From positions 1 to 60,721 of the forward strand of contig CAYMQI010000001.1 in the NCBI GenBank assembly GCA_964392715.1: DNA of 60,721 nt, written 5' to 3'. The stretch comes from an uncultured Pseudomonadales bacterium. GTDB taxonomy: Bacteria; Patescibacteriota; Microgenomatia; UBA1400; CAYNFZ01. Both the position numbers and the translations under genes were made by a program. Below, piece by piece: positions 59,892 to 59,958 of this stretch. Within the stretch, counting starts at the first letter, position 1; every line of letters begins with the position of its first letter. Under the pieces are notes generated by a model. That model searched no databases. It was not told where the DNA came from and saw only the letters and a list, made by a program, of their open reading frames with translations.

Positions 59892-59958
59892 TTGGTTAGA
59901 TGGTCAAATGGTCCTCTGGTTATGCTAAAACCATTAAACCATGTAACCACATAGCCAT
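59892..59958. repeat. Inverted pair of 8-nt periodic arrays: 4 x YTGGTY, a 7-nt spacer, then 4 x ARCCAY
   Basis: Left arm: ttggtt 59892, atggtc 59900, atggtc 59908, ctggtt 59916. Right arm: aaccat 59929, aaccat 59937, aaccac 59945, agccat 59953. Lies between the stop at 59887 and the recO ATG at 59963. Confidence 0.85.

Follow-up and report, generated by a model that had tools for sequence, protein, structure and literature searches.

Convergent arrays of a dispersed octamer repeat fill the junction between a DUF4012 gene and recO in a groundwater bacterium of the Candidate Phyla Radiation

The window analyzed here is a stretch of 60,721 nt (contig CAYMQI010000001.1 of assembly GCA_964392715.1) from a groundwater bacterium of the Candidate Phyla Radiation (CPR), the assembly of which (G000) comprises 1.13 Mb in 100 contigs at 50% GC. 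Near its end, at positions 59892-59958, a short repeat element lies between a gene for a DUF4012 protein and recO. We show that this element is a non-coding, species-specific insert of two head-to-head octamer arrays, and that it is one of a dispersed family. It belongs with the dispersed intergenic short tandem repeats of 5-11 nt, a class that includes the short tandemly repeated repetitive (STRR), TAACTGA, and GGGAATC sequences, and it does so as an octamer. The features of the junction are as follows:

57851..59887, + strand: upstream gene, DUF4012 protein of 678 aa (list of open reading frames, ORFs; Pfam PF13196, E=6e-27), which precedes recO also in L019 and L034
59885-59887, + strand: DUF4012 stop codon, TGA
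59892..59921, + strand: left arm, four units at 8-nt spacing, TTGGTTag ATGGTCaa ATGGTCct CTGGTT (sequence, periodic pattern matches)
59922..59928, + strand: spacer ATGCTAA, 7 nt, loop region of the predicted hairpin (sequence, RNA fold)
59929..59958, + strand: right arm, four inverted units, AACCATta AACCATgt AACCACat AGCCAT (sequence)
59894..59948, + strand: predicted imperfect RNA hairpin, with runs of 5-6 bp (AUGGU/ACCAU) and small internal loops between them
59900..59962, + strand: in-frame 21-codon "extension" from an ATG in the left arm, judged not to be RecO from the RecO_N profile start and the orthologues
59963..60514, + strand: recO, 183 aa plus stop codon (Pfam RecO_N and RecO_C; called at 183 aa in L011-L014 and L016)

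The conserved hexamers of the left arm start at 59892 (ttggtt), 59900 and 59908 (both atggtc), and 59916 (ctggtt), and those of the right arm at 59929 and 59937 (both aaccat), 59945 (aaccac), and 59953 (agccat). A first-pass annotation, made from the letters of this DNA, had placed arms, spacer, and hexamers at these positions, and all proved right to the base. It had also described the element as ending 4 nt before the recO ATG and filling the gap, which is confirmed: the element ends at 59958, tttt follows, the ATG stands at 59963, and 67 of the 75 bases between DUF4012 and recO are taken up by the repeat. The period is exactly 8, and a repeat search found the stretches 59893-59912 and 59930-59949 to be 85% complementary. 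The pattern TGGT-N4-TGGT-N4-TGGT, with at most one mismatch, has 10 matches in the window against 0.36 expected and a maximum of 2 in 100 shuffles; all 10 fall in three loci (45644-45671, 47413-47474, and 59885-59957). Sixteen independent contigs, which come from about 14 groundwater assemblies produced with different assemblers, carry the recO-side element in identical form; six of these contigs were found via the upstream gene, so that the repeat was not a condition of the search. The element is no artefact of assembly.

Two side observations concern the surroundings of the element. A perfect 12-nt palindrome, AATTGATCAATT, at 59882-59893 spans the DUF4012 stop and the first base pair of the left arm; the relative with a 71% identical RecO carries TTGATCA shortly before its own recO start. 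The palindrome is probably due to chance. The contig of the window ends at 60721, and a contig of another assembly (L001, 1255-4047) runs 2.8 kb further; several independent contigs cease to align at base 60721 yet continue beyond it, which suggests a repeat or strain break just 3' of recO.

The same octamer recurs throughout the genome. At least three TGG[TC] cores at 8-nt spacing occur in 61 chains, against 2 in a shuffle. Forty-eight of these chains have ATGG cores, are spread over 30 contigs, and hold 3-7 units each, the unit being ATGGYT followed by two bases that are mostly purines (ATGGYTRR). After correction of ORF starts, 44 of the 48 arrays are intergenic in a genome of which about 90% is ORF; the genes that adjoin them are functionally unrelated, and some arrays are found between convergent genes as well. 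Inverted pairs occur at eight loci, every one of them convergent, with the form 5'-(ATGGYTRR)n-(6-19 nt)-(YYARCCAT)n-3'; five, the recO copy among them, lie between tandem genes and three between divergent genes. The window holds two further members:

47412..47475, + strand: sister inverted pair, 3 + 4 units, between a hexapeptide transferase gene and a glycosyltransferase family 2 (GT2) gene (4 + 4 units in the strain variant L021)
45633..45690, + strand: direct-only array in the AACCAT sense, 6-7 units, upstream of the ATG at 45708 of a glycosyltransferase family 4 (GT4) gene (identical in L021)

The first-pass annotation had treated the recO copy and 47412-47475 as one element type, and both are indeed convergent inverted pairs of ATGGYT plus two free bases. 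Its view that the element is not restricted to glycan genes holds as well, with about 48 arrays on 30 contigs beside unrelated genes. Its description of the recO element as a "second copy" stands only insofar as 47412 is a sister copy, since there are far more than two copies and the family is genome-wide.

The left arm contains AUGs at 59900 and 59908, and an ORF of 204 aa (59900-60514) reads through the element into recO. The Pfam RecO_N profile begins at residue 22 of this ORF. The RecO homologues that we found are 177-183 aa long, except for one call of 188 aa and one of 209 aa, the latter translatable only with TGA read as Trp, and relatives at 71, 66, 65, 56, and 39% identity start at the equivalent Met without such upstream sequence. 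The first-pass annotation had called the N-terminal extension spurious and had named conservation of the 21 upstream codons in orthologues as the finding that would speak for coding; the profile start, the 183-aa calls, and the five orthologues all bear it out, and no such conservation was seen. Judged by these comparisons, the 21 codons are not part of RecO. As a practical point of annotation, gene callers have introduced this false extension of 21 residues in most public assemblies.

The element is also young. The exact three-unit pattern has 26 matches in the host assembly; three same-family genomes have none, and the 40 relatives of the order yield one occurrence in G008 and a single array in G019, the latter a convergent inverted pair between divergent genes. 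That pair (L030; G019:C57, 5070-5145) is built of an ATGGYTNN octamer in 5 + ~4 units with no spacer, and the 8-kb contig that carries it holds 20 strong tandem repeats. The octamer element is absent from the RecO loci of five relatives:

L034: RecO 71% identical, DUF4012 upstream, 90-nt gap without repeats
L019: RecO 66% identical, DUF4012 upstream, 9-nt gap TAAgctggtgtcATG
L038: RecO 65% identical, a different short-repeat leader, CTCTTAC x3 (125-161), ending at the ATG
L037: RecO 56% identical, without the octamer element
L020: RecO 39% identical, without the octamer element

No intermediate state of the element was found among RecO loci outside the species, the nearest of which encodes a protein 71% identical. 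Given its absence from all five, the element is a recent gain, specific to this lineage, in a former operon junction.

As to how the element arose and what it does, the reading that we favor, with moderate confidence, is that of a cargo-less repeat-hairpin cassette, born by slippage, whose RNA stem partly masks the recO leader. Part of this origin is shown: slipped-strand mispairing adds or removes units in this lineage, which lacks MutS, as in the one-unit change at the sister copy, and the orientation of the arrays follows the extreme strand asymmetry of the chromosome. The element would probably be transcribed inside one DUF4012-recO mRNA: no sigma-70 promoter or terminator consensus was found in the DUF4012-recO gap, promoter and terminator scans turned up nothing relevant at either pair of the window, and the corresponding gap in the 66%-identity relative is only 9 nt, which together make co-transcription probable. 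In this mRNA, the G-rich left arm would pair with the G-poor right arm, otherwise an unstructured leader free of a Shine-Dalgarno (SD) sequence, and the two would form an interrupted stem of about 20 bp that stops 4 nt short of the AUG. Translation of recO should be uncoupled and damped by it. Such a stem would also be a plausible substrate for RNase III, like hairpins built from simple sequence repeats in 5' untranslated regions (5'-UTRs) and the stems of 23S rRNA intervening sequences (IVS), which are RNase III substrates; the RNase III gene (rnc) is present in the genome. The 96-nt context has a minimum free energy of -23.2 kcal/mol (z = -2.28; -26.0 kcal/mol for the bottom strand), and the predicted unpaired probability of recO positions -25 to +6 is 0.35 in the native sequence, 0.50 +/- 0.07 when the left arm is shuffled, and 0.58 when that arm is deleted. 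Rfam covariance models run over the whole window gave 0 matches at the gathering score. We do not think that the element is a dedicated recO regulator; it would rather be a repeat, selfish or mutational, with a hairpin that causes side-effects locally, and recO is probably a bystander.

A number of observations weigh against this reading. The hairpin is only modestly above shuffles, 7 of 200 being equally stable, and the effect on accessibility amounts to only about 2 SD. Complementarity at the variable positions is 0.60 between cognate arms and 0.57 between non-cognate ones; nothing thus indicates that a perfect stem has been selected for or recently copied, and we reject the idea that the two arms are recent inverted copies of each other or co-evolve. 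The run of five T after the stem makes a weak terminator possible, and in the three pairs between divergent genes, each arm may be a separate leader, for which no RNA hairpin is required. Co-transcription, folding in vivo, and RNase III cleavage are steps that we infer. Slippage alone does not explain the same 6-nt core at about 45 loci, and the recO copy is without length variation in the 16 contigs, even where the flanks have diverged by 0.2%, although this invariance rests on consensus assemblies, which could hide minor variants.

Slippage itself, which the first-pass annotation had raised for both copies, is only partly borne out: it is real in the octamer family and is not observed at the recO copy. 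In the strain variant L021, which is 99.3% identical, the sister copy at 47412 has gained exactly one 8-nt unit in its left arm, which deepens its predicted fold from -21.7 to -29.9 kcal/mol (z from -2.6 to -4.0). The 87-nt intergenic spacer in which the sister copy lies also carries four substitutions in L021, against eight in about 2800 flanking coding bases, and the direct-only array at 45633-45690 is unchanged. The MutS_V domain was not found in the host assembly nor in six of the seven relatives checked. Loss of mismatch repair had been considered as the cause of the repeat richness, but MutS is absent from repeat-poor relatives too and therefore does not discriminate.

The orientation of the arrays follows two rules that have to be seen against the composition of the chromosome. 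GC skew per contig is +/-0.25 to 0.47 and independent of coding direction (-0.16 to -0.41 in window 1-60721; contigs C2, C9, and C16 are other examples), and the extreme skew is common to the family and the order (same-family genomes G001-G003; relatives L024-L029). Genes show a bimodal sense-strand skew: the C-rich strand carries about two-thirds of coding bases, and the G-rich strand about one-third, which includes genuine UvrD, LeuRS, PBP1A, and P-type ATPase genes. The only sharp switch of sign lies at about 10.9 kb of C16, between divergent genes. The dnaA-dnaN / rpmH-rnpA-yidC locus (C44) shows no switch, so that dnaA does not serve as a marker of replication direction and the leading strand is not assignable. 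By the first rule, the ATGG form lies on the G-rich strand in 31 of 32 single arrays, further exceptions being one arm in each of the eight pairs. By the second, 32 of 44 arrays are followed by a start codon, often at a distance of 5-30 nt, and their reading in the mRNA sense is ARCCAT. The two rules agree for genes on the C-rich strand and conflict for genes on the G-rich strand, where single arrays are almost absent. At recO, the right arm is a G-poor leader of the AACCAT type in the mRNA sense, with the same sense and position as most single arrays, and the left arm is the G-rich ATGGYT form on the C-rich strand, opposing both the genome's rule and the local skew. TAGATCG heptamer arrays obey the skew regardless of the direction of neighboring genes, which points to a DNA-level or mutational basis for orientation. 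The leader rule may have arisen because the ATGG form would add upstream AUGs to leaders in an SD-poor organism.

That the organism is SD-poor is seen from the upstream regions of its genes: GGAG or GAGG at -20 to -4 precedes 8% of C-rich-strand and 22% of G-rich-strand genes, barely above control positions. The 3' end of the 16S rRNA, GGATCACCTCCTTTCT, is a canonical anti-SD, which rules out an altered anti-SD complementary to ARCCAT; only the GG variant units show a 6-nt complementarity, to the GGAUGG upstream of the anti-SD, and this we judge to be chance. As a side observation, the 16S rRNA gene (G000:C77:16-2900) is broken by long insertions, so that the Rfam model matches in pieces and the 3' end lies about 800 nt past position 1491; one insertion contains the heptamer-like GGTAACT/AGTAAAT/AGTAATC.

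The octamer is not the only short tandem repeat of this genome. Tandem Repeats Finder reported 183 strong tandem repeats, 109 of them of period 7 (107 loci once overlapping calls are merged), which makes period 7 far commoner than periods 6, 8, and 9. These heptamer arrays have dozens of different units and are mostly intergenic and near start codons (51397-51429 and 34673-34694 are examples in the window). The TAGATNN family alone accounts for about 25 arrays and 39 pattern matches, with almost none in the 40 relatives, and its heptamer TAGATGG overlaps with the octamer TAGATGGT. The host assembly has about 3 repeats per 20 kb and same-family genomes have 0-1 per 20 kb; the density is high again in those contigs of G019 and G008 that were sampled. 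A REP-like (repetitive extragenic palindromic) hairpin, TCGGCC-N3-GGCCGA, is joined to 11 octamer arrays, which often have TAGATNN heptamers at their opposite end. The composite mosaic, (TAGATNN)n-(ATGGYTRR)n-TCGGCC-N3-GGCCGA-CNGGGG-(ATGG...), occurs in 11 copies, all oriented with the skew, and its hairpin has a conserved stem and a variable loop, like REP elements. The copies in G000 are:

C2:8712; C3:1816; C3:28107; C4 (- strand); C10:13116; C24:82; C44 (- strand); C49:4723; C62:4503; C66:1924; C78:1988

PF05635, the family of the 23S rRNA IVS protein and of Avd-like four-helix bundles, has 10 matches in the host assembly, and at seven of nine PF05635 loci the gene is enclosed by inverted short tandem arrays, with a unit particular to each locus (around C9:5362-5727, for instance, (ACAGGTA)7 ... 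CCTGTTAcTTGTTAC):

PF05635 loci in G000: C9:3840-4319; C9:5362-5727; C9:24936-25286; C26:8232-8588; C38:8698-9080; C20:989-1306; C54:838-1092

Across the 41 genomes searched (40 relatives and the host), PF05635 is present in 27, with up to 10 copies; repeat-rich genomes have 10, 8, and 6 copies, against 2, 2, 5, 1, and 0 in sampled repeat-poor ones, and the sole TAGAT array of G005 precedes a PF05635 gene by 25 nt. Compared with the repeat-hairpin cassettes found around PF05635 genes, the recO element is a version with a short loop and no cargo. A broader and more tentative reading, which we regard as possible though unlikely, is that inverted 7-8-nt arrays form a single system of hairpin cassettes that propagates itself in CPR and other bacteria. 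Copies with a gene would then hold PF05635/Avd-like proteins and, here, also a degenerate protein similar to the REP-associated tyrosine transposases (RAYTs); copies without one, of which the recO element is an example, would be non-autonomous. The cassettes would be made or copied on the single-stranded DNA of one replicative strand, and this would account for the agreement of 31 of 32 single arrays with GC skew. The sites where the cassettes settle would be stop-to-start junctions, in which the G-poor arm would act as an SD-free ribosome landing pad and RNase III would cut the stem.

Other explanations of the element have to be weighed against the favored one. The first takes it for a mobile element of the REP/REPIN type (REPINs being inverted doublets of REP sequences), whose arrays are spread on one replicative strand by a Y1 (HUH) transposase, with the inverted pair as the replicative unit and (ATGGTTAG)n or (CTAACCAT)n single strands as the proposed enzyme substrates. 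The genome encodes four RAYT-like Y1_Tnp proteins (C74:1148-1804, C15:1139-1849, C52:1863-2543, and C64:3557-4210). Three of the genes are flanked on both sides by their own dispersed palindromes (AAGGTCAGACCTT in about 20 copies, ACGTCAAAGGACGGACCTTTGACGT in 12, and GTCAACCCCCGAGGTTGAC in 5), and the fourth, at C64, lies between inverted TAGATCG heptamer arrays. The 11 arrays joined to a REP-like hairpin would fit as well, and strict strand orientation is expected from replication-coupled single-strand transposition. However, the ATGGYTRR octamer flanks no RAYT-like gene, the C64 protein is degenerate (RFH for HFH in the HUH motif, with a score below the Pfam cut-off), and RAYT-like genes are present in 32 of 41 relatives, which are devoid of these arrays; in relatives, palindromes and not tandem repeats flank these genes. 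RAYT copy number shows no correlation with the arrays. The recO element has neither GTAG nor a GC-rich palindrome, and copies of the octamer arrays vary in unit number and in their variable bases, so that they are not copy-and-paste products. We consider this explanation clearly unlikely.

Two further proposals are each quite improbable in our estimate. According to one, the element is an intrinsic, possibly bidirectional terminator of the DUF4012 operon, with recO expressed from its own promoter. The hairpin does begin 5 nt past the stop codon and is followed by TTTTT, and A-rich and T-rich tracts flank the sister copy. Yet the terminator scan was empty at both copies, no promoter consensus precedes recO, and the ATG comes directly after the T-run, which leaves no space for a promoter; the stem is AU-rich and interrupted instead of GC-rich and uninterrupted, other pairs lack T-runs, and the short gap of the 66%-identity relative points to co-transcription. 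According to the other, the array is a double-stranded DNA operator for a small repressor or nucleoid protein that controls recO and about 40 other genes, comparable to the heptads of the omega protein or the 8-bp met boxes of MetJ. A 6-bp conserved core with two free bases at a fixed 8-bp spacing, arrangements that are both direct and inverted, and sites just upstream of start codons would suit such a protein. Against this, the target genes are functionally unrelated, and related families have a 7-nt period and overlapping cores (TAGATGG and TAGATGGT), which would change the helical phasing. Moreover, orientation tracks strand skew, which a duplex-binding dimer does not require, arrays are found between convergent genes too, and the family is missing from same-family genomes of shared gene content.

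A contingency (phase-variation) switch, in which gain or loss of units toggles recO or shifts the frame of the upstream ATG, appears very improbable. The repeat is of a slippage-prone type, the sister copy has its one-unit polymorphism, and the ATGs of the left arm stand in different frames, one of them in frame with recO; but the element is identical in all 16 contigs of about 14 assemblies, strains with flanks 0.2% diverged included, and recO is not a typical contingency gene. The weakest proposal, a genuine translated N-terminal extension of RecO of 21 residues, has in its favor the open frame from the ATG at 59900 and the 204-aa protein called by some pipelines, but it is hardly credible and already effectively refuted by the RecO_N start at residue 22, by the absence of the extension from every orthologue, and by the presence of the same repeat at about 45 non-coding sites.

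Comparison with described systems supports the assignment of the element to the class of dispersed short tandem repeats: it shares with them the head-to-tail dispersed units and the intergenic location upstream of SD-poor starts and, with the Xanthomonas type, the convergent pairs, whereas the unit length of 7 nt of the named heptamer families is replaced here by a period of 8. The GGGAATC heptamers of Xanthomonas and the GGGGAYT heptamers of Nostoc (Rehm et al. 2015, PMC4692102) are dispersed and intergenic, with one unit type per genome. In Xanthomonas, 70-75 loci are convergent inverted pairs able to form stem-loops, and the length of the repeats varies among related genomes, with no change of type between pair and single (PMC4692102). 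Dispersed intergenic short tandem units and convergent pairs are thus shared, but the unit here is an octamer of six conserved and two free bases, and the host is a CPR bacterium with a 1.1-Mb genome. Since the octamer has only GG runs, a three-tetrad G-quadruplex is not possible. Single arrays here strictly follow GC skew, whereas the Xanthomonas repeats are about evenly divided between strands (PMC4692102).

TAACTGA direct repeats have been described in marine Beggiatoaceae, Cyanobacteria, and Bacteroidetes (MacGregor 2015, PMC4679880), with 169 direct sets against one indirect set in Beggiatoa (PMC4679880), and among the cyanobacterial STRR heptamers, an eightfold GAC(C/T)AAT abuts the recO start of Nostoc (bioRxiv 10.1101/2022.06.06.494920). 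The function of TAACTGA and STRR sequences is unproven (PMC4679880; bioRxiv 10.1101/2022.06.06.494920). Many repeat sets a few nucleotides before the start codons of unrelated genes and a patchy phylogeny are common to them and to the present family; in contrast to those heptamers, which are nearly always direct, the octamer here forms an inverted pair at one locus in five. The RACCAT found here is similar to the Nostoc unit GACCAAT, and both precede recO. This likeness is probably a coincidence, because close RecO relatives are without any such repeat.

The nearest experimentally understood analogue is the hmw1A 5'-UTR of Haemophilus influenzae, in which an (ATCTTTC)n heptamer array forms with a G-rich arm a long hairpin that RNase III cuts and that governs expression of the downstream gene (PMC12721329). 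In both cases, a G-poor repeat arm pairs, or is predicted to pair, with a G-rich arm in a 5' leader; slippage changes the repeat number at hmw1A and, in the present family, at the sister copy. The hmw1A case is experimentally shown, concerns a virulence contingency locus, and has a G-rich partner arm that is not a repeat, whereas here both arms are arrays, the element is intercistronic, the recO copy is invariant, and RNase III cleavage is inferred. Extended stems from inverted flanks are also found in 23S IVS and PF05635 cassettes; the recO element differs from these in having a 7-nt loop and no ORF and in not lying in rRNA, and the ATGGYTRR octamer flanks none of the PF05635 genes found in the host assembly. 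REP sequences and bacterial interspersed mosaic elements (BIMEs) are often located at operon junctions, where they affect mRNA stability. With REP, BIME, and REPIN sequences of E. coli and Pseudomonas, the present family has in common many-copy intergenic, hairpin-forming inverted doublets and the RAYT-like genes in the genome. It differs from REP and REPIN sequences in its arms of tandem octamers, which take the place of a 20-40-nt palindrome with GTAG (neither GTAG nor a palindrome of the unit occurs in 59892-59958), and in that no RAYT gene is flanked by ATGGYTRR.

Taken alone, the recO element is one more repeat copy, ordinary in this genome; it is the wider system that is worth following up. 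It offers a compact system for an old puzzle, the role of 7-8-nt tandem repeats upstream of bacterial genes, in a setting that combines a 1.1-Mb genome, almost no use of SD sequences, no MutS, and extreme GC skew. Its arrays show a near-absolute strand rule, a clear split between single leaders and hairpin pairs, and a physical association with PF05635 and RAYT-like genes. Should the arrays turn out to be landing pads for ribosomes under the control of a partner arm, or the products of a strand-specific DNA enzyme, they would bear on translation initiation and genome dynamics in CPR bacteria.

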